Virus record (IMG/VR): IMGVR_UViG_2541047683_000001
Direction: 5' to 3' (one strand)
DNA from: a virus
Taxonomy: Duplodnaviria; Heunggongvirae; Uroviricota; Caudoviricetes
DNA: 38,758 nt
The notes under the pieces were generated by a model. The model saw nothing but the letters and a program-made list of their open reading frames with translations, made no database searches and was not told where the DNA came from. The position numbers were made by a program, and so were the translations under genes. Of this stretch, positions 1,054 to 27,125 are shown piece after piece. How positions within the stretch are numbered: position 1 is the stretch's first letter; every line of letters starts with the position of its first letter.

Positions 1054-1083
1054 AAAAATGCCCTCCAATGGAGAGCATTTTTA

Positions 1084-1099
1084 CTGTATACATAACCAG
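1084..1099. promoter_or_regulatory. weak LexA-box-like site CTGTATACATAACCAG between OLD-like gene and int
   Basis: CTGT-N8-CCAG, one mismatch to the CTGT-N8-ACAG consensus; AT-rich spacer. Confidence 0.25.
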
Positions 1100-1130
1100 T
1101 GTCAATGTATGTATATTATTAAGAATACAT

Positions 1131-3113
1131 TCATTTTGAGTTAAAAAAGCTTATAATTTCTGTCAGCCATGAAGGCGTATATTTTTCATTAATATCAAAA
1201 AGAGCATTGGTGTATTCTTGACAAAATTTAGTTTTATTTCCAGATTCCTCAAAATATCTTTTTATTATTAATTTTTGGCTAGTTGTCAGATCTAATATTC
1301 CAGCTGCAACATTGGACGGTAATGTGTTAATGTTCTCTATAAATGAGAATCTATTATCACCTTTCTTATAAAGTCGATGTAATGTTTTGTGGAAAATAAT
1401 CCCAGATAATACATCTTCAATTTCAGTTGGTGGAGAAACTCTATTGTCGGTGGTTTTTAGTAAGTCAGCATCACTTAAATCATCGCGTAGCAGCAGTCTT
1501 CTGATTCTGACTTGCGATATGCTGTCTGAAGTATCAAATTTATCATACGATTGATCTGTATCCAATAAACAAAAGACTTTTCCTTTTATTGCCGGCTTTC
1601 TGTCTTTTAAAGCTAAGATAAGATATGAGTAAATATCTTTGAGTGCAAATGACCCCCCAACACTTAATACAATTATATTTTTATTTTCTAAATTTTCAAA
1701 TTTAAGATGGGATTCAATGTATAATTTATCTGTACGTCCTTCGCACAATATCCAATTATAATTATTTTGTGATGTAATTGAAGTTATTATGGATTGAACA
1801 AGATCATGATTGCTTTTCACTTCTAAAGTATCTAAATATGAGCCTTTAGATTCTTTAACAAGGGTCGACAATTCATCTCGATAATACTCAAGGTTAAGGC
1901 ATTTTATCAATGCTTGATTTGGAGAAACATAAGTGGCACTACCGCTCATTGCTGCAGGAAGAAAACCATACCAATGAGTAGTACATATGGTTTGAATGCC
2001 TATTTCACTTATTTTTTTAATCTTCTCAAATTGTTTAAAGCAAGATGTCGCATGTAAAGATAACTCTGGTTCATCGACAGCTAATATTGTAGCTTGTTGA
2101 GTTTTTTTGGGATTGTCTTTTAAAAAACCTATGGCTAAATCAAGTAATGCCTTCCTTTTTTCACCAGAACTAAGATTGTGGACAGGTGTATCCCTATTGA
2201 TATTGTCAATATAATGAAGAATTTTGTCACTAAAGTAAGTTTCGATGATTTTAGAAATCATGTGGCGTTGAGTAAATGAATTCTGCCGTTGCGTCGGTCT
2301 TTTGAATTGATACTGCCCATCAAGCTTATATGATAGTTGATCAACAAAGTCATTTAAGTGACGATTTATTTCATTGATGTCACTTTTTTTAATTATCTTA
2401 CTGATTCGTTGTTGTAAGTTTTCTCCAAGTAAAGATTGCAATAACTCACTCTCTATTTTTGAATATTCTGACGTGGTAATTTCTGCAGGCAAATAAATAT
2501 AGTTATAGATATCTTTTATATTATCAAGCAAGCGATTTGATGTGTTCTTGAAATGGTTTTTCTGAGTGTTTGGGGAGCTTCCATCGGGAATTAGTTCATC
2601 AATTCTGGAATGATAATCCTCAATTGATTCAAATATTGACATATAAGATCTAGGTGCTTCATTCGCTTTTTCTTTTATGACTCCTAAAGGAATTAAAAAG
2701 TAATCTTTAGATGAGTAGTTTAACTCTAATATATTGCGATGTGATATAAATTTTTCGGCAATTGTTCGTTGCATTGAATTAAAGTCTTCACTTTCCAATT
2801 GCCATGTAATATCACTAATAACATCAAGAGCTTTATAAGTAAATGAATTAGACCTGAAGCGATCTTTACGTATGAGAAAAATTGGTACAATAAACGGTTC
2901 ACGAGTTTCGAATCCCAGACTCCTGGCATCATTATTTATATCAAGTCTGTTTATATCTGTTCTGTTAAGAACAACATCCAAAGCTTGCAATATTGAACTT
3001 TTTCCAACACCATTTTCACCAATAAGCCAAGATGAATTGTTATTCATAGCGATCGGAATATAATGTTGATTCCTAAAATTTTTGAAGTTTCTTAAAATAA
3101 CACCGATAATCAT
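1131..3113 (-). CDS. OLD-family protein: N-terminal ABC-type ATPase plus C-terminal TOPRIM-like nuclease domain (candidate anti-phage cargo)
   Basis: ORF track 1131..3116; ATG at 3113 with AAGGGA upstream, 19 nt after the repressor stop; Walker A GENGVGKSS; Walker B-like ILAVDEPELSLH; C-terminal ILCEGRTD glutamate motif and CLLDTDQ DxD motif; visibly AT-rich. Confidence 0.7.
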   Translation of the reverse strand: MIIGVILRNFKNFRNQHYIPIAMNNNSSWLIGENGVGKSSILQALDVVLNRTDINRLDINNDARSLGFETREPFIVPIFLIRKDRFRSNSFTYKALDVISDITWQLESEDFNSMQRTIAEKFISHRNILELNYSSKDYFLIPLGVIKEKANEAPRSYMSIFESIEDYHSRIDELIPDGSSPNTQKNHFKNTSNRLLDNIKDIYNYIYLPAEITTSEYSKIESELLQSLLGENLQQRISKIIKKSDINEINRHLNDFVDQLSYKLDGQYQFKRPTQRQNSFTQRHMISKIIETYFSDKILHYIDNINRDTPVHNLSSGEKRKALLDLAIGFLKDNPKKTQQATILAVDEPELSLHATSCFKQFEKIKKISEIGIQTICTTHWYGFLPAAMSGSATYVSPNQALIKCLNLEYYRDELSTLVKESKGSYLDTLEVKSNHDLVQSIITSITSQNNYNWILCEGRTDKLYIESHLKFENLENKNIIVLSVGGSFALKDIYSYLILALKDRKPAIKGKVFCLLDTDQSYDKFDTSDSISQVRIRRLLLRDDLSDADLLKTTDNRVSPPTEIEDVLSGIIFHKTLHRLYKKGDNRFSFIENINTLPSNVAAGILDLTTSQKLIIKRYFEESGNKTKFCQEYTNALFDINEKYTPSWLTEIISFFNSK

Positions 3114-3132
3114 CAATTGTCCCTTCTGAATG

Positions 3133-4068
3133 TTATTTACAAGTCATTATTACTTTGGCGATGATGTTAATTTCATCAATTTTACATTCGATCTTATTAT
3201 TCTTACTTTCTAAAGCAATTCGACTGTTAGGCAATCGAATTAAATTACGTATAGAATAAATACCATCAATGGCTACAAGCCATAAGCCATCGTTTACTTC
3301 TTCAAAATCGCTATTGATTAGGTAAATAACATTTTCAAATTCAATAATTGATATTTTGCTACTATCGTTTGGTAAAAGTGTACGATCAAACATTAAATAT
3401 CCGTTGGTAAATAGTTTACCATTGGTAATATTTTGTTTGGTTAGACAAGTTATTTGTGATTTTGCATCCATAAACATAGGACCTTCAGATTGCGAAAGCC
3501 ACCGCAGCGATGCCCCTGTTTCTAAAGCACACTTGATAATCCAGTCGGAGGGAAAAGTATCCCTCATATAACGATTGGCTAATGTACTTTTTGAGACACC
3601 AAGGTGGTCAGCTAAGGCTTGCCGGGTTTTGAATCCATATGCTTGGACAAGGCGTTCTATTGCTGCCTTACCCCCCTTATTTGGATTTATATTGAACTCA
3701 TTTCGGATGTTTTCTTTTCGAACCGTCTTATCACAATTCGAGATTTTTTTGGTTTCATGTTCATCATTGAGTTCATGTTGGTGTGAAACGCTTTCGTTTA
3801 TGCAATCGGTGCCAAATGCTAACCATTCGACAGTAACACCTGTTTCCATGCTACAAATGACAACCCAGTCTGCGGGGAACGTGTCACGTGCATATCTGTT
3901 TGCCATCGTGCTTTGGGAGATACCAATGTGGTTACAGAATGCTTGGCGGGAAGTGAAGCCGTAAGCCTGCAGAATCCGATCTATGACCTGCTGCCCTCCA
4001 CGATTCTGCATTATTAAAGCCTTCATATCATCGCTAACATGGCGAAATGTGTTTTTGTGTGTTGACAT
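3133..4068 (-). CDS. cI: phage 186 CI-like immunity repressor with tandemly duplicated N-terminal DNA-binding domain
   Basis: Two diverged copies of the module ..QAYGF..RQA...LG.S.ST.ANRY.RDTFP.DW...C..ETG...WL (about aa 25-85 and 128-190), then a C-terminal region; alternative in-frame ATGs at 4026 and 4011, true start uncertain. Confidence 0.8.
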   Translation of the reverse strand: MSTHKNTFRHVSDDMKALIMQNRGGQQVIDRILQAYGFTSRQAFCNHIGISQSTMANRYARDTFPADWVVICSMETGVTVEWLAFGTDCINESVSHQHELNDEHETKKISNCDKTVRKENIRNEFNINPNKGGKAAIERLVQAYGFKTRQALADHLGVSKSTLANRYMRDTFPSDWIIKCALETGASLRWLSQSEGPMFMDAKSQITCLTKQNITNGKLFTNGYLMFDRTLLPNDSSKISIIEFENVIYLINSDFEEVNDGLWLVAIDGIYSIRNLIRLPNSRIALESKNNKIECKIDEINIIAKVIMTCK

Positions 4069-4156
4069 ATCCGATTTGTGATCCTATTCTCCGAAATGTG
4101 AAGTTGAAGTCACGATTAATACCGGCTCACCACAAGCCAATAGGAGATGTTGCATC
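4069..4156. promoter_or_regulatory. immunity switch region between divergent repressor and apl/cox-like genes
   Basis: 88-bp intergenic region between divergently transcribed cI and apl-like genes; contains tandem TGAAGT TGAAGT and AGGAG RBS for apl; promoters/operators not resolved. Confidence 0.4.
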
Positions 4157-4378
4157 ATGACCCCTAACATTTCAATAACTCTGAATACGCCACATGTCAC
4201 AATCGAGCGTTATAGCGAACTTACTGGTCTTTCAATCGACACAATTAACGATATGCTGGCTGACGGTCGCATCCCTCGGCATCGCCTTCGGAAAGACAAG
4301 AAAAGAGAAAAGGTGATGATCAACCTTGCTGCTCTTACCGTTGATGCACTTACTGATTGCAATGTTGTATTCAACTAG
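4157..4378 (+). CDS. Cox/Apl-like small DNA-binding protein (excision/switch regulator)
   Basis: 73-aa ORF first in the rightward early operon, directly upstream of the CII homologue; AGGAG 10 nt upstream; basic C-terminal half. Confidence 0.65.
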
Positions 4379-6510: not shown

Positions 6511-7364
6511 GCACCATCCTGAAATGGGCGGGAAATAAAACCGCCATTATGTCCGAACTGAAAAAACACCTTCCTGCTGGCCCGCGACTGGTTGAACCTT
6601 TCGCGGGTTCCTGTGCTGTGATGATGGAGACGGATTACCCCAGCTATCTGGTTGCGGATATTAATCCTGATTTAATCAACCTCTATAAAAAGGTTGCCGC
6701 TGATTGTGAATCGTTTATATCTCGCGCCAGAATTTTATTTGAGAACGCAAACAGGGAGATGGATTATTACAACATAAGGCAGGAGTTTAATTACTCGACT
6801 GAAATTACTGATTTCATGAAAGCGGTATATTTCCTGTATCTCAATCGTCATGGTTACCGTGGGTTATGTCGCTATAACAAGAGCGGGCATTTCAACATTC
6901 CCTACGGGAATTATAAAAATCCGTATTTCCCTGAAAAAGAAATTCGCAAATTTGCAGAAAAAGCCCAACGAGCAACGTTTATCTGCGCCAGCTTTGATGA
7001 AACGCTGGCGATGCTGCAGGTGGGGGATGTGGTGTATTGCGATCCGCCGTATGACGGTACGTTTTCCGGCTATCACACTGATGGTTTCACTGAAGATGAC
7101 CAGTATCACCTGGCATCCGTTCTTGAACATCGGTCATCAGAAGGACATCCGGTCATTGTTTCTAACAGTGATACATCCCTGATCCGTTCGCTGTATCGCA
7201 ATTTTACTCACCACTACATCAAGGCAAAACGCAGCATCGGTGTAGCAGCTGGTGAGAGTAAATCTGCAACAGAAATCATCGCTGTTTCCGGGCCGCGCTG
7301 CTGGGTGGGATTTGATCCTTCGCGTGGCGTGGATAGTTCTGCCGTGTACGGAGTGCGTGCATGA
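6507..7364 (+). CDS. DNA adenine methyltransferase (Dam family, orphan)
   Basis: N-terminal KWAGNK motif and catalytic DPPY ([10 protein letters not shown]); ATG 6507 overlaps TraR stop; GGAGG RBS. Confidence 0.9.
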
Positions 7365-9775
7365 GCCATGCTGATATGAACAACTGCAGCGGCTTTAACG
7401 AGGTCGCCGCAGCATTCTCATGGAACAGCCCGAAAAAGGCCATTAACCCTTATCTGGACCCGGCGGAAGTTGCGCCGGTTTCTGCGCTTTCAAACCTGAT
7501 CACTCTGTACGCTACTGATAACGAGCAGGAACAACTGCGCCGCGAGGCACTGAGTGATCAGGTCTGGGAGCGTTATTTCTTTAATGAATCCCGTGATCCT
7601 GTCCAACGCGAAATGGAGCAGGATAAGCTCATTAGCCGGGCAAAGATGGCGCATGAGCAGCAGCGTTTTAATCCGGACATGGTCATTCTGGCCGACGTCA
7701 ACGCCCAGCCTTCCCATATCAGCAAGCCGCTGATGCAACGTATTGAATATTTCAGCAACCTGGGCAGGCCAAAGGCTTATTCCCGCTATTTGCGTGAGAC
7801 GATTAAGCCATGTCTGGAACGACTGGAGCATGTACGCGACAGCCAGCTATCTGCATCTTTTCGTTTTATGGCAAGCCATGAAGGGCTGGACGGTCTGCTG
7901 ATCCTGCCTGAAATGAGTCAGGATCAGGTGAAACGCCTGTCTACCCTTGTCGCTGCGCATATGAGCATGTGTCTTGATGCCGCTTGTGGTGATTTGTACG
8001 CCTCCGATGATGTTAAGCCAGAAGAAATCCGCAAGACATGGGAAAAGGTGGCTGCAGAAACCCTGCGACTGGATGTCATACCGCCTGCGTTTGAGCAACT
8101 CCGCCGGAAAAGAAACCGCCGCAAACCTGTGCCCTATGAACTCATTCCGGGTTCGCTGGCGCGTATGCTGTGCGCCGACTGGTGGTATCGGAAATTATGG
8201 AAGATGCGTTGCGAATGGCGGGAAGAGCAGTTGCGTGCTGTCTGCCTGGTCAGCAAAAAAGCATCTCCCTATGTCAGCTATGAAGCCGTGATGCATAAAC
8301 GTGAGCAGCGCCGTAAGTCGCTGGAGTTTTTCCGTTCTCATGAACTGGTGAACGAAGACGGCGACACGCTGAACATGGAGGATGTGGTAAACGCCAGCAG
8401 CAGCAACCCGGCGCATCGCCGCAATGAGATGATGGCCTGTGTTAAAGGCCTGGAGCTTATCGCGGAAATGCGTGGTGACTGCGCCGTTTTTTACACTATC
8501 ACCTGTCCGTCACGTTTCCATTCCACGCTAAATAACGGCAGGCCAAACCCGACCTGGACCAACGCGACAGTAAGACAAAGCAGCGATTATCTGGTCGGCA
8601 TGTTTGCTGCATTTCGTAAGGCTATGCACAAAGCCGGGTTGCGCTGGTATGGCGTGCGGGTGGCTGAGCCGCATCATGACGGCACAGTTCACTGGCACCT
8701 GTTGTGTTTCATGCGCAAAAAAGACCGCCGCGCCATTACTGCATTGTTGCGTAAGTTTGCCATCCGTGAAGACCGCGAGGAGCTGGGCAATAACACGGGG
8801 CCACGCTTTAAGTCTGAGCTGATAAACCCGCGCAAAGGAACGCCGACAAGCTACATTGCGAAATATATCAGTAAGAATATTGACGGGCGTGGTCTGGCTG
8901 GCGAGATCAGTAAGGAAACGGGTAAATCCCTGCGTGATAACGCTGAATACGTTAATGCCTGGGCGTCTCTGCATCGTGTTCAGCAATTCCGCTTCTTTGG
9001 CATTCCGGGGCGTCAGGCTTACCGTGAACTGCGATTGCTGGCTGGTCAGGCGGCAAGGCAACAGGGTGACAAAAAAGCAGGTGCGCCGGTACTGGATAAC
9101 CCGCGCCTTGATGCCATCCTGGCTGCTGCTGATGCTGGTTGTTTTGCCACCTACATCATGAAGCAGGGCGGCGTACTGGTTCCCCGCAAATATCACCTCA
9201 TCAGAACCGCTTATGAAATCAACGAAGAGCCAACCGCCTATGGCGATCACGGTATTCGTATTTATGGCATCTGGTCACCCATTGCAGAGGGCAAGATCTG
9301 CACTCATGCAGTGAAGTGGAAAATGGTTCGTAAGGCCGTTGACGTTCAGGAGGCGGCAGCCGACCAGGGCGCTTGCGCCCCTTGGACTCGTGGCAATAAC
9401 TGTCCCCTTGCTGAAAATTTGAACCAACAAGGGAAAGACAAATCAGCTGATGGGGATACCAGGACGGACATTACCCGCATGGATGACAAGGAGTTGCACG
9501 ATTACCTGCACAGTATGAGCAAAAAAGAGCGCCGGGAACTGGCAGCAAGGTTACGCCTTGTGAAACCGAAACGGCGTAAAGACTACAAACAGCGAATTAC
9601 AGATCATCAGCGACAGCAGCTCGTGTATGAACTGAAGTCCAGGGGATTTGATGGCAGCGAGAAAGAGGTCGATTTACTGCTTCGCGGCGGCAGTATTCCA
9701 TCAGGAGCAGGCCTGCGTATCTTCTATCGGAACCAGCGTTTGCAGGAAGATGATAAGTGGCGAAACCTGTATTAA
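7361..9775 (+). CDS. A: replication initiation protein (P2 gpA / 186 RepA-like rolling-circle initiator)
   Basis: 804-aa ORF; HWHLLCF HUH-type motif and YIAKYISKN tyrosine motif; ATGA overlap with dam stop. Confidence 0.9.
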
Positions 9776-9869
9776 TTACGCGGGTTAACAATTCGTGCTC
9801 TTAATAATACCAGGCATATCAGGCTGATGAGCATAAAAAAACGTTTTACATCAGTAAGATTATTATATA

Positions 9870-9885
9870 CTGTAAATATAAACAG
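9870..9885. promoter_or_regulatory. LexA box CTGTAAATATAAACAG overlapping a candidate promoter
   Basis: Perfect CTGT-N8-ACAG with AT-rich spacer (TACTGTAAATATAAACAGTG), about 45 bp upstream of the ATG at 9928; weaker half-site follows. Confidence 0.7.
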
Positions 9886-9927
9886 TGGTTATGTATACAG
9901 TATTGCTTTGGTGTCATAGGAGGAAAG

Positions 9928-10116
9928 ATGCAGGACTATTTTTTGGAGTCTTTGAAGCTCCAGCGCATTGATTTTTTTCTTAAGCTTGTAGCGGCTAGTG
10001 AGTGTAGTGATGAAGAGAAGGGGCTGGCCCTGCAGTGGGTTTCTGAACTGACAGATGAACTTATGGCAAAAATCAGAACCCACGAATACAATCGCTCAAT
10101 GGATGTCATCAGCTGA
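9928..10116 (+). CDS. hypothetical small protein, first gene of putative SOS-controlled operon
   Basis: 62-aa ORF with AGGAGG RBS 4 nt upstream, downstream of LexA box. Confidence 0.55.
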   Translation: MQDYFLESLKLQRIDFFLKLVAASECSDEEKGLALQWVSELTDELMAKIRTHEYNRSMDVIS

Positions 10117-10126
10117 GGTGACCTTT

Positions 10127-10360
10127 ATGCGCATTGAAATAATGATCGATAAAGAGCAGAAGATTAGCCAGTCTACCCTGGACGCCCTTGAATCCGAGCT
10201 TTACCGCAATCTGCGCCCCCTGTATCCCAAAACGGTAATTCGCATCCGCAAAGGTAGCTCTAACGGTGTGGAACTGACCGGACTGCAACTGGACGAAGAA
10301 AGAAAACAAGTGATGAAAATTATGCAGAAGGTGTGGGAAGACGACAGCTGGCTGCATTAA
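10127..10360 (+). CDS. DinI-like damage-inducible protein
   Basis: 77 aa MRIEIMIDKEQKIS...VWEDDSWLH, DinI-like from N- to C-terminus; GAGGTG RBS; track ORF 10055 has an upstream extension without RBS. Confidence 0.75.
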   Translation: MRIEIMIDKEQKISQSTLDALESELYRNLRPLYPKTVIRIRKGSSNGVELTGLQLDEERKQVMKIMQKVWEDDSWLH

Positions 10361-10519
10361 GAAAAGTTGCTGGCGTCTGAACTTGGTTCTGGCGTCAGCA
10401 AGGTTGAACAACGAGTACAGTGAGGCGTTAGGTGTGGCGTTTATTTGATGAGTGAACGCCCGTTCTGCGACAGGTTCGGAGATTAAGGTTGAAACTACGG
10501 GCAAAATACCATCTTTTTC

Positions 10520-10945
10520 CTACTTAATTGAGTCCAGTAACAAGTTACAGTTACTCTCATTGTAGAGAGAACGAGCAATTAGTGTTACCTGCTTTCCATT
10601 CATTCCCGGCTTATCCCATAACACAGCTTCTTGCGACGCCACAAATTCAGCATAATCAATTATGCGTTGTTCGTGATCTGGTTCCTCATAGCCAAAGTAT
10701 GAGAGCGCATCGTTGTAAGCGTGGTAAGCTGCTTTCTGTAATATCTTGATATCGGCTGTAGGTACTTGCTCCGTGTAGCTAGGATCTAATTGTGTGCTAC
10801 TGCCATAGAATGCACATGAAAGGTAAGATATTGATTTCTGTTGAGCTTTAGTTCCTTTCTCATAGTTTTTAGCTGTTACCGCCTGAACTGGGACGCTAAC
10901 AAAGCTTGCAACCAGAATTAAAATTAATACGTAAAAGCTTTTCAT
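10520..10945 (-). CDS. hypothetical secreted protein (moron-like cargo)
   Basis: N-terminal Sec signal peptide MKSFYVLILILVASFVSVPVQA; GAGG RBS; visibly AT-rich; opposite strand to neighbours. Confidence 0.65.
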   Translation of the reverse strand: MKSFYVLILILVASFVSVPVQAVTAKNYEKGTKAQQKSISYLSCAFYGSSTQLDPSYTEQVPTADIKILQKAAYHAYNDALSYFGYEEPDHEQRIIDYAEFVASQEAVLWDKPGMNGKQVTLIARSLYNESNCNLLLDSIK

Positions 10946-11218
10946 TTTGACCTCAGCCGAAACGTTAGAGAGACTATCGAAATTTGTAAAACCCGTGGCG
11001 ATTCAGTTTGAGATCCTCCCCCTTACATGATTTTTAATCAAATATATGCTTTTGTAAGCATACCTGTTAACCGAATTATTTATTTTTAGAGATCTTCCGA
11101 CATACTGATTATGCCCGCTGAGGAGTTCACCTTGCGTAAAGTCCGATTCGCTTTACTCGTCTGTGCATGTCTATGCTGCATGAGATTGCATGATCGTTTG
11201 AGGATCGTTTTTGCTAAG

Positions 11219-11243
11219 GCCCGCCAGAACTGGCGGGCTTTTG
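11219..11243 (+). terminator. rho-independent terminator-like hairpin
   Basis: GCCCGCC(agaact)GGCGGGC followed by TTTTG. Confidence 0.5.
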
Positions 11244-11287
11244 CGTAGATCATGCACCTGCATGAAAACCACTACATAAAGCGGGCA

Positions 11288-11306
11288 GGCGTGGCGGGGA
11301 TACGAG
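11288..11306. other. cos: candidate cos cohesive-end site GGCGTGGCGGGGATACGAG
   Basis: First 13 nt match my recollection of the P2/186 19-nt cohesive end (GGCG.GGCGGGGA...); lies between A and Q as expected; recollection of the cos sequence is uncertain. Confidence 0.3.
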
Positions 11307-11382
11307 CGCGCGGTTTGACTGAAAAGTTATGATAAATCACAATTAGGTCTAGTTAGCATTTTTTCTTTTCATGGAGACAACT

Positions 11383-11883
11383 ATGGAACAGGATTATATA
11401 GATCGTGGCTTTGGTTTATGGTCAAAACCTGGTGTCCCGCGTAAGGGATGGGTAAACGTAGGAGTGGAAGACCTAGAAGAAAGTCGAAAAATTTGTGATA
11501 TGTGTGGGAAAACAGAGATAAGGTATGTCCACATAATGTCACATGAGAATTACCCAGATTACTTAGAGGTAGGGTGCATATGCGCTGGTCACTTGGAGAA
11601 TGATTATGATTCTCCAAGAAAACGAGAAAGTGAAATTAAAAGTCGATCAGCCAAAAGAAAAAGATGGTGTAACTTACCTTGGAAAATATCTAAAAAAAAT
11701 CAATTTTACATAAAAAAAGATGGATATAGCATCATCATTCTCGACAAGGGTGATTATTTTATGGGAATGATAGTTGACGAGAGAACGCAAATTAAATATT
11801 GGACTAGAGAATGTAAAGATACTAACGAGGCGAAATTACTTTCATTCGATAGAATAACAGCGCTAATGGCAAGCTCTAAATAA
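11383..11883 (+). CDS. zinc-ribbon-like protein, first gene of a two-gene accessory cassette
   Basis: ATG 11383 with GGAGA upstream (track ORF starts 11371); cysteine cluster CDMCGK...VGCICAGH; lysine/arginine-rich tail; AT-rich. Confidence 0.65.
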   Translation: MEQDYIDRGFGLWSKPGVPRKGWVNVGVEDLEESRKICDMCGKTEIRYVHIMSHENYPDYLEVGCICAGHLENDYDSPRKRESEIKSRSAKRKRWCNLPWKISKKNQFYIKKDGYSIIILDKGDYFMGMIVDERTQIKYWTRECKDTNEAKLLSFDRITALMASSK

Positions 11884-11899
11884 TTTTAGGATTAATTAA

Positions 11900-13030
11900 A
11901 TGTATAATGTTGTATTGGATACAAACATACTCCATGCGGAAGGTATTCACTCACGAGGTATGGCAACTCTTAAAAAGTTAATAGATGAAGGCATTGTTAA
12001 AGTTCATTTGCCTGAACTAGTCGTGAGAGAATTTTCCACGAAAAAAATCACCGTAATAAATGAAGCCTATAATAAGGCGATTAATATTTTAAGAGGCACT
12101 GAACGCGAAGCAAGAGGATCCGAAGAGTCGATACTGCGAGATATTGATGAACTAAAAAACATCATAGACGACAAAGTGAAAGTACTTGATGAAAAAATTA
12201 ATGGTGCAGTTAGGCAATGGATTCAGGATTTTCGAATAAATATTATCCCGTTACATAGTGAATTTACATCAACTGTTTTTGAGAACTATTTTTGTGGCAA
12301 TGGTGTTTTTAAATCGAAAAAATCAAGAGAAGACATACCAGATGCTTTCATTAGCCTCAGTATCGAAAAGTTGCATGATGAAGTCGGTGAATTAATGGTT
12401 GTACTCAAGGATGCGTTGTTTAGAAAGCATTTGTCTGGCTTGGATGGGGTAAAAGTTTATGATAGCTTAGATGAACTTTTCCAATTGCCTAACATTAGAG
12501 CCAGTTTAGAAAATGAAGCCGCATCCTCTTTTTTGACATCAAGTTTATTCAGAACAGCGTTAGAAAACTTCTTACAGCAGAAACCGAATTATTTCGAAGG
12601 ATTCTATCTTGAGATTACTGAGGGAACAGAACTGCTTGCTGATTGGGTTATTGGTGCACATACCGAAATCAACGATTATGGACAAGTAAAGGATATTACA
12701 ATAAGTGATGTAATCAGAAAATCTGAAAGTAACTATTCAGCAAAAATTTCTTTTAAATTGGACTCTAATATCTCTTATGTAACGGATTACGGTGAAGTGC
12801 TTAAAATAGAGAGAGATAAAAACAGAAGCGCGGATTGTTGGAGTATGACAGGTGATGGCATGTGCGATCTTAATGAAAATGTGAATTTAACCTTGGAAGG
12901 TGACTTAAGTATTACCTTTCAAGGTGATTTCAATACATTGAAAAAAGAAGAATCCGAAACTTATTTGAATGAAAATGTTATTGTTATGACAATAAGTTTA
13001 TATGAGGCTATTATAGACAAAGTTCTTTGA
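11900..13030 (+). CDS. PIN-like domain protein, second gene of the cassette
   Basis: 376 aa; N-terminus MYNVVLDTNIL typical of PIN-fold first acidic residue, later EDIPDAF; AGGA RBS; 17 bp after upstream gene; AT-rich. Confidence 0.7.
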   Translation: MYNVVLDTNILHAEGIHSRGMATLKKLIDEGIVKVHLPELVVREFSTKKITVINEAYNKAINILRGTEREARGSEESILRDIDELKNIIDDKVKVLDEKINGAVRQWIQDFRINIIPLHSEFTSTVFENYFCGNGVFKSKKSREDIPDAFISLSIEKLHDEVGELMVVLKDALFRKHLSGLDGVKVYDSLDELFQLPNIRASLENEAASSFLTSSLFRTALENFLQQKPNYFEGFYLEITEGTELLADWVIGAHTEINDYGQVKDITISDVIRKSESNYSAKISFKLDSNISYVTDYGEVLKIERDKNRSADCWSMTGDGMCDLNENVNLTLEGDLSITFQGDFNTLKKEESETYLNENVIVMTISLYEAIIDKVL

Positions 13031-26926: not shown

Positions 26927-27125
26927 GCCATTCAATATCTGGTGCACTGGAAGTATCGACCAGTTCCAGTGCGTCCAGGTAATCCAGCCACAAATTATAT
27001 TGTGCCAGTTCCTCACCTTTCAGACAACCAATAGCTGCTTTGCCAGGCCATTGCTTACTGTTTATAAACTCATTAGCCCAGTCTATTCGCAGCTGTTTCT
27101 CTGCTTCGGCAGCAATAACAATCTC
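26898..27125 (-). pseudogene. inverted 3' fragment of a second tail fibre assembly gene (remnant of invertible fibre segment)
   Basis: Minus-strand ORF ends LWLDYLDALELVDTSSAPDIEWPTPP (Tfa C-terminus), tail-to-tail with G and overlapping it by about 29 nt; N-terminal part replaced by AT-rich sequence from about 27126. Confidence 0.6.

Follow-up and report, generated by a model that had tools for sequence, protein, structure and literature searches.

A probable SOS-induction operon of the split tum type, with two overlapping LexA boxes, in a Fels-2/186-type prophage

The tumA–tumB Locus Downstream of Gene A

The virus record IMGVR_UViG_2541047683_000001 (38,758 nt; "the window" below is this whole stretch of DNA) is a complete-looking prophage of the P2/186 family (Peduoviridae), in which replication gene A is followed by an operon of two small genes, a 62-aa open reading frame (ORF) and a 77-aa DinI-like gene (Table 1). 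The gap between the end of gene A (9775) and the start of the 62-aa ORF (9928) is 152 bp long and carries a CTGT-N8-ACAG LexA box at 9870–9885, as a preliminary description made from the letters alone had pointed out; the ORF behind it (9928–10116) has a strong ribosome-binding site, AGGAGG at 9918–9923, and the gene at 10127–10360 is DinI-like, both again as described. The single LexA box recorded at that stage is real, but a second one overlapping it (9883–9902) had been missed. The module is one that has already been characterised, the "split tum" SOS operon, and its genes should be annotated tumA and tumB. Lemire et al. (PMC3121763) describe the tum genes of Fels-2 and PSP3 as split by a stop codon and assign antirepressor activity to the upstream gene of PSP3, whose GenBank record lists tumA ("similar to 5' end 186 tum; UV induction of prophage") and tumB; in the window, too, a stop codon lies between the halves and the second ORF is equipped with a start and a ribosome-binding site of its own. 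Copies of the module turned up in 1125 of the 5426 complete E. coli genomes, derivatives of BL21 and CFT073 among them, and in 56 records of phages, most of these from Klebsiella.

The tumA product is identical at 61 of its 62 residues to STM2728 of Fels-2 and likewise to ECHS_RS04495 of DuoHS, the corresponding prophage of E. coli HS, and the gene is labelled a hypothetical protein in RefSeq. No model for the protein was found in Pfam or NCBIfam, nor in PADLOC (run on the neighbouring genes). The earlier statement that it is unrecognised thus holds for the Pfam and NCBIfam models and not for the literature, which knows it as TumA, the upstream half of split tum. Among the PHROG profiles, the 62-aa ORF matched phrog_698 (3.6e-38), phrog_8554 (2.4e-8) and phrog_1993 (2e-3), and the N-terminal 70 residues of 186 Tum matched the same three (5.9e-6, 3.4e-12 and 1.5e-23, respectively), while TumA of PSP3 matched phrog_1993 (E = 2.7e-32); these profiles connect the ORF to residues 1–48 of 186 Tum. 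A gapless alignment of the two TumA/Tum-N subfamilies spans 48 columns, in which the hydrophobic pattern is conserved, as are E7, R13, L20, C26, A34, E40 and K48. The PHROG profiles, the synteny and the gapless alignment support homology of the 62-aa ORF with the N-terminal half of Tum. An AlphaFold2 model of TumA is a two-helix hairpin (helices 2–23 and 28–61; pLDDT, the predicted local distance difference test score, 90.5). A sequence-profile search of the PDB with the protein found nothing, and Foldseek with the model against the PDB returned generic helical hairpins only (all E > 1).

The relatives used for comparison were loci from different species of Enterobacterales. Judged by its substitution pattern, tumA is under strong purifying selection, the ratio of nonsynonymous to synonymous change (dN/dS) being 0.03–0.19 against 30 species loci, with synonymous sites near saturation. 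The (T/A)AGGAGG upstream of its ATG is conserved in the species loci, and antisense ORFs across the gene are interrupted in most of them.

The 77-aa ORF matches Pfam DinI (PF06183) over the entire profile (positions 1–63 of 63; 81.3 bits against a cut-off of 24.2, E = 6.6e-23), as well as E. coli DinI (PDB 1GHH), and aligns with residues 71–145 of 186 Tum at 41% identity (E = 3e-24). Its product is 100% identical to those of Fels-2 and DuoHS (77/77), 78% identical to TumB of PSP3 and 42% to the C-terminal half of 186 Tum. The cut-off of the NCBIfam equivalog for host DinI (NF007893) is not reached (42.7 bits vs 111), so that the gene is to be taken as a paralogue belonging to the phage and not as DinI proper. 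From its family membership and the annotation of the 186 counterpart ("modulates SOS induction"), the protein would be expected to modulate RecA filaments. The two ORFs of the window are in different reading frames, 10 nt apart, and since the ribosome-binding site of the second overlaps the stop codon of the first, translational coupling is suggested. Where the DinI-like gene is present (20 species loci), the gap is 8–12 nt, a G-rich ribosome-binding site is always present, and all three relative frames occur. Since tumA stands without a DinI-like gene in 13 of 33 species loci, the core function seems not to require that gene.

The SOS Promoter and Its Double LexA Operator

Upstream of tumA, the hexamers TTTACA and TACTGT are spaced by 17 nt. 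A scan for consensus promoters and terminators found neither a promoter nor a terminator here; the promoter was overlooked because its −10 fits the consensus at three of six positions only, and it was identified through comparison with promoter p95 of phage 186. Most of the 33 species loci retain TTTACA, and the sequence of the spacer is variable. The likeness to the tum region of 186 that had been noticed at the outset thus extends from this p95 layout to the match of the DinI ORF with Tum residues 71–145 and to the PHROG link with the Tum N-terminus.

The core of box 1, CTGTAAATATAAACAG (9870–9885), is the sole CTGT-N8-ACAG in the window. As a bare 16-mer it is not significant, with 0.68 occurrences expected per window and at least one in 48 of 100 shuffles, but the full 20-mer TACTGTAAATATAAACAGTG has at most three mismatches to the LexA consensus TACTGTATATATATACAGTA, and such sites appeared in 0 of 100 shuffles. 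When scored with a LexA matrix, as the preliminary description had proposed, it proved the best LexA-type site in the window, with an approximate heterology index of 4.0–4.5, within the range of genuine E. coli boxes. Box 2, CAGTGGTTATGTATACAGTA, is weaker (approximate heterology index 8.1–10.0), yet under the same matrix it scores at least as well as the proximal box of colicin N (9.6–12.5). The two boxes overlap by 5 nt as 20-mers and have one G in common as 16-mer cores (9870–9885 and 9885–9900), so that together they make a composite 39-nt double operator, TATACTGTAAATATAAACAGTGGTTATGTATACAGTATT.

A 45-nt blastn query with this operator against 7.3 Gb of plasmid sequence matched the operators of colicin N and colicin R (84–88% identity over 42–43 nt, E = 3e-5 to 9e-6), in which CTGT-N8-(A/C)CAG is likewise followed by GTGG-N8-ACAG, with one G in common. 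Shared ancestry may account for the likeness, as may convergent evolution under identical constraints from LexA. For colicin double boxes, binding of two LexA dimers and a very tight repression have been reported (PMC2994835); by analogy, two LexA dimers probably occupy the operator of the window, and a double operator of the colicin type may set a high threshold for induction.

Box 1 is kept in position in 31 of the 33 loci, with diverging flanks and spacer, and the double-box arrangement occurs in 21 of the 33. The sole loss of the box together with gene decay was seen in locus L037 (Siccibacter turicensis, ~9900–10180), where only a stub of 20 codons is left of tumA and the LexA box is degenerate (TGCTGTGTATATAAGTATT), box and gene having been lost together. 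Elsewhere in the window, a weak LexA-like half-match, TACTGTTTATAAACTCATTA, was found at 27056–27075 in the tail-fibre/cargo region (approximate heterology index 8.8); it is probably a chance match, because only its left half-site is good.

The Partner CI Repressor

The presumed target of TumA, the CI repressor, matches Pfam Phage_CI_repr twice and Phage_CI_C once, that is, it has tandem helix-turn-helix (HTH) domains and one C-terminal domain. Repressors of the lambda type carry a LexA-like S24 peptidase domain; for the CI ORF of the window no Pfam match to Peptidase_S24 was reported at E ≤ 0.01. Such a repressor, of the 186 CI type and with no S24 match, is in keeping with induction through an antirepressor and not through RecA-mediated cleavage. 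The two HTH domains behind the earlier remark on an unusual, duplicated-domain repressor are real, but the architecture has precedents: cI of PSP3 (286 aa) aligns over both HTH copies, and Klebsiella phages such as ST437-OXA245phi4.2 and 4LV2017 have CI proteins of ~302–305 aa with 52–56% identity over 98% of the length, alongside a tum module at 97.6% DNA identity. The exact CI gene of the window was found in 5 of the 5426 E. coli genomes.

Across 29 loci, TumA is far more uniform than its partner, with a mean pairwise identity of 86% for TumA compared with 63% for the N-terminal domain of CI, 27% for the linker and 39% for the C-terminal domain. The divergence of the two proteins is uncorrelated (Spearman −0.04 and −0.12), and in many pairs of loci TumA is at least 96% identical while the C-terminal domains of CI share only 25–35% identity. 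This uncoupling argues for an invariant feature of CI as the target of TumA, a candidate being the N-terminal motif AYGF..RQ.L..HL..S.ST.A.RY.RD.FP..W...C..ETG.

Proposed Function and Alternative Explanations

We consider it very probable that the operon serves the SOS induction of a P2-family prophage of the Fels-2/186 type and represents the split tum (tumA–tumB) form of such operons. In the lysogen, LexA would sit on the double overlapping operator, box 1 covering the −10 hexamer and box 2 the start region, and the promoter would be shut. DNA damage would activate RecA, LexA would cleave itself and the operon would be transcribed, with TumA and the DinI-like protein made from one transcript. 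TumA would then bind or sequester the 186-type CI, by which the lytic promoter would be freed and lytic growth would follow without cleavage of the repressor, and the DinI-like protein would act on RecA filaments, tuning the strength or duration of the SOS signal.

Published work on relatives fits this scheme. In DuoHS, an in-frame deletion of ECHS_RS04495 (as "tum") left no mitomycin-C lysis and no virion foci, and the same was seen in a lexA(Ind-) strain, according to the Phollow study (PMC12055606). In Salmonella, STM2726–STM2728 of Fels-2 behave like a single induced operon, and STM2727 rose 5.5- to 14.8-fold with the mutagen MX together with genes of the LexA regulon (PMC2225428). For 186, it was shown biochemically that Tum binds CI and stops it from occupying the operator (Shearwin 1998, as cited in PMC3121763), and it is from this biology that CI is predicted to be the target of TumA. 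The early suggestion of induction through an SOS-controlled antirepressor rather than repressor cleavage is thereby strengthened, through the DuoHS tum and lexA(Ind-) genetics, and agrees with the CI of the window, in which no S24 domain was reported; that the 62-aa protein is a candidate for this antirepressor gains support from the 61/62-identical DuoHS orthologue, whose deletion abolished induction.

Several points nevertheless count against this interpretation. The anatomy, homology and conservation come from the present analysis, and the functional data come from DuoHS (dependence on LexA and tumA), Fels-2 (damage-inducible transcription) and 186 (CI binding), not from this prophage. The DuoHS deletion is described in the available text of the study (PMC12055606) without complementation, and a polar effect on the DinI-like gene is conceivable. 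Pairwise BLASTP of the 62-aa protein with 186 Tum or PSP3 TumA gave no alignment, and the homology with the Tum N-terminus is therefore remote and visible at the profile level alone; hhalign of the shallow family alignments did place residues 4–43 against 4–43 in register (P = 0.0018), with a probability of only 15%. In the operator, the left half-site of box 2 is poor (GTGG), and the heterology matrix, built from E. coli LexA sites, is approximate and reproduces published values only roughly. The CI of the window is only 47% identical to that of DuoHS and ~35% to that of Fels-2 and has an extra HTH domain, so that the pairing of TumA with CI is extrapolated; by analogy with these relatives, TumA would neutralise the tandem-HTH CI of this prophage.

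This last point could be taken further, the operon being SOS-controlled and TumA inactive on the tandem-HTH CI, so that the operon would be a hitch-hiking SOS modulator acting through the DinI-like protein and RecA, and the prophage would be non-inducible or induced otherwise. The distance of this CI from those of DuoHS and Fels-2 (47% and 35% identity), its duplicated HTH and its rarity (5 of 5426 E. coli genomes) speak for such a case. It is nonetheless improbable, because the pairing recurs: tandem-HTH CI accompanies the same module in the Klebsiella phages, and in PSP3 a two-HTH CI stands beside a tumA annotated as needed for UV induction. The high conservation of TumA whatever the type of CI, as expected if a conserved CI feature is recognised, and the strong purifying selection on the gene likewise speak against an inactive TumA. 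Doubt might also fall on the integrity of the gene pair. Since the two halves form one 146-aa protein in 186 and lie in different frames, 10 nt apart, in the window, they might be the remains of a frameshifted fused tum, that is, a pseudogene; this view has hardly any probability and is contradicted by the evidence, because 20 species loci retain the split form with a gap of 8–12 nt, an own ribosome-binding site and all three frames, tumA stands alone in 13 further loci, and dN/dS is low with synonymous sites near saturation. Besides, in 186 itself the DinI half is also produced on its own, through an internal GTG start, and in DuoHS the deletion of the upstream ORF alone abolished induction.

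As regards the operator, the LexA-like site might be a chance AT-rich palindrome and the operon independent of LexA, given that a bare core is expected 0.68 times in a window of this length. We regard this as very unlikely, on account of the 20-mer that no shuffle reproduced, the overlap with the −10 exactly as in 186 p95, the retention of the box in 31 of 33 species between diverged flanks with a loss only where the gene is decayed (L037), the resemblance to the colicin operators and the block that lexA(Ind-) imposes on the induction of the near-identical DuoHS. The SOS-induction operon of the split tum type is thus the explanation that we retain.

The 3' End of the Operon, the int Promoter and the Prophage Context

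The operon ends in a hairpin (RNA fold −21 kcal/mol, z-score −1.9) that is conserved by covariation: in 15 loci 87% of the cells are paired, compared with 36–51% in controls with slid partners, seven pairs are changed on both sides, and the observed pairing was reached in 0 of 500 shuffles. Frequent G-U pairs indicate that the plus strand is the folded one. No U tract follows the hairpin (10367–10401), and Rfam gave no match over 9700–10600; candidate roles of the hairpin are partial termination, processing and stabilisation. Directly behind it lies an invariant junction motif, GGTTGAACAACGAG-N5/6-(T/C)GAGGCGTTAG, which was found in 18 of 36 loci, after dinI or, where dinI is absent, directly after tumA, and right after which the cargo genes diverge. 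The GAGG of this motif acts in several loci as ribosome-binding site for a plus-strand ORF downstream; the window has no more at this place than a stub of 7 codons. The ORFs so served encode in some species a small MGKKD.NYQIVYRG protein and in locus L022 a UmuD-like protein. In some relatives, this structured 3' junction element may couple cargo genes to the SOS operon.

A second strong LexA-type box, CACTGGTTATGTATACAGTA, lies on the minus strand at 1082–1101 (approximate heterology index 4.1), ~30 nt upstream of the integrase ATG (1053) and in the spacer of a promoter (TTGACA-16/17 nt-TAAAAAT, 1077–1105, minus strand). The box is conserved, with a diverged upstream flank, in DuoHS and in loci L007, L016 and L039, which are the only loci with an int at least 89% identical and with int and cI separated by inserted genes; loci with the other type of int, which abuts cI, are without it. 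This pattern of conservation suggests that int has its own SOS-controlled promoter. An apparent GT/AC co-variation between box 2 of the tum operator and the int-upstream box (window vs DuoHS) was dismissed as coincidence, L007 breaking the pattern. The int promoter with its LexA box had gone unremarked in the preliminary description, as had the hairpin and junction motif at the operon end, the absence of co-variation between TumA and CI and the precedents for the CI architecture.

Two stretches, 9780–10400 and 3133–4160, recur in E. coli strain C4 (NZ_CP010121) with 100% identity. Between cI and int, an interval described as a minor defence hotspot in P2-like phages (PMC13586616), the window has an inserted gene for a 661-aa OLD-family protein (AAA_15 ATPase and OLD-like TOPRIM domains) with PADLOC matches to AriA/Old. 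Further cargo occupies 10520–13030, in the GpA–GpQ defence hotspot, and consists of a convergent 141-aa ORF (phrog_7437, of unknown function; secreted-looking by eye) and a two-gene plus-strand cassette for a 170-aa cysteine-rich protein and a 376-aa protein with a PIN_12 domain. The cargo genes at 10520–13030 had no PADLOC match, and the cassette is therefore a possible uncharacterised defence pair.

Table 1. Features of the tumA–tumB operon and of the surrounding prophage, in window coordinates.
Feature	Position	Strand	Remarks
−35 hexamer TTTACA	9845–9850	+	Read from sequence; equivalent to 186 p95
−10 hexamer TACTGT	9868–9873	+	Within LexA box 1; same hexamer and overlap as annotated for 186 p95
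LexA box 1	9868–9887	+	Promoter-distal; TACTGTAAATATAAACAGTG
LexA box 2	9883–9902	+	Promoter-proximal, weaker; CAGTGGTTATGTATACAGTA
Ribosome-binding site of tumA	9918–9923	+	AGGAGG; read from sequence
tumA	9928–10116	+	62-aa acidic two-helix protein, presumed CI antirepressor
Ribosome-binding site of the DinI-like gene	10115–10120	+	GAGGTG; overlaps tumA stop TGA (10114–10116)
tumB (DinI-like gene)	10127–10360	+	77 aa; ATG at 10127
Hairpin at operon 3' end	10367–10401	+	Conserved
Junction motif	10402–10431	+	Invariant; GGTTGAACAACGAG-N5/6-(T/C)GAGGCGTTAG
Integrase	1–1053	−	
OLD-family ATPase/TOPRIM gene	1131–3116	−	
CI repressor, 186-type	3133–4068	−	311 aa; presumed TumA target
CII, Fil, DUF5347, DUF2732, DksA-like zinc finger, Dam	between CI repressor and gene A		
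Replication gene A	7361–9775		
Cargo region, then portal and terminase genes	3' of gene A and SOS operon		

Implications

The main value of this analysis lies in the annotation of tumA: a 62-aa "hypothetical protein" would be what switches on induction in a family of prophages found in about one fifth of complete E. coli genomes as well as in many strains of Klebsiella and Salmonella. The release of such phages, along with their defence cargo, upon an SOS trigger (e.g., an antibiotic) would therefore be under its control. Modestly new are the double operator, the conservation of TumA uncoupled from the diversity of CI, the LexA-box promoter of int, and the 3' hairpin with the junction motif; the double operator, the TumA/CI uncoupling and the int LexA box lead to testable hypotheses on how tightly such prophages are silenced and how broadly they are induced. 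If TumA recognises an invariant feature of CI, cross-induction of heteroimmune relatives is predicted. We therefore put forward, tentatively and with some doubt of our own, that Fels-2-type TumA is an immunity-independent "master key" that could cross-induce co-resident heteroimmune P2-family prophages, within a small SOS regulon of the phage's own made up of the double-operator tum promoter, the LexA-box promoter of int and the 3' junction element. The idea builds on nearly the same TumA being paired with single-HTH and with tandem-HTH CI architectures.

Comparison with Known Systems

The closest counterparts are Fels-2 (STM2728/STM2726.1) and DuoHS (ECHS_RS04495/ECHS_RS04500), which have the same position after gene A, the same promoter and the same LexA box 1. 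In DNA, DuoHS and the window share ~95% identity over the aligned stretch, divergent tail after dinI included. The differences are a 2-nt change in the spacer of box 2, the CI partner (single-HTH proteins of 189 aa in DuoHS and of 210 aa in Fels-2, against the 311-aa tandem-HTH protein of the window) and the sequence right after the dinI stop, where both relatives diverge and are without the hairpin and junction motif. PSP3 resembles the window in its small upstream ORF (60 aa), the DinI homologue downstream, the LexA box that precedes them and the two-HTH CI, whereas its TumA belongs to another PHROG family (~22% identity; phrog_1993 vs phrog_698).

Both PSP3 and 186 have a single LexA box, which aligns with box 2 of the window. 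As in the window, the LexA box of 186 lies over the −10 TACTGT of a promoter downstream of gene A, p95 being TTCACA-18 nt-TACTGT against TTTACA-17 nt-TACTGT here, and Tum, too, consists of an N-terminal antirepressor part followed by a C-terminal DinI-like part and acts on a CI-type repressor inactivated by binding, not by cleavage. In 186, however, both parts are fused in one frame as a 146-aa protein, with the DinI part made also from an internal GTG start, and the gene is followed by a canonical intrinsic terminator (t95a) instead of a hairpin without a U tract.

In colicin operons (colicin N, colicin R and others), a similar double operator controls a bacteriocin, unlike the prophage antirepressor of the window. 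The antirepressors GfoA, GftA and FsoA of Gifsy-1, Gifsy-2 and Fels-1 share with the tumA–tumB operon the combination of a LexA-repressed small antirepressor that binds the repressor with a DinI homologue, and they can act in trans on other prophages; as described in PMC3121763, they differ in that dinI comes first, the phages are not 186-like and the repressor is of another family.

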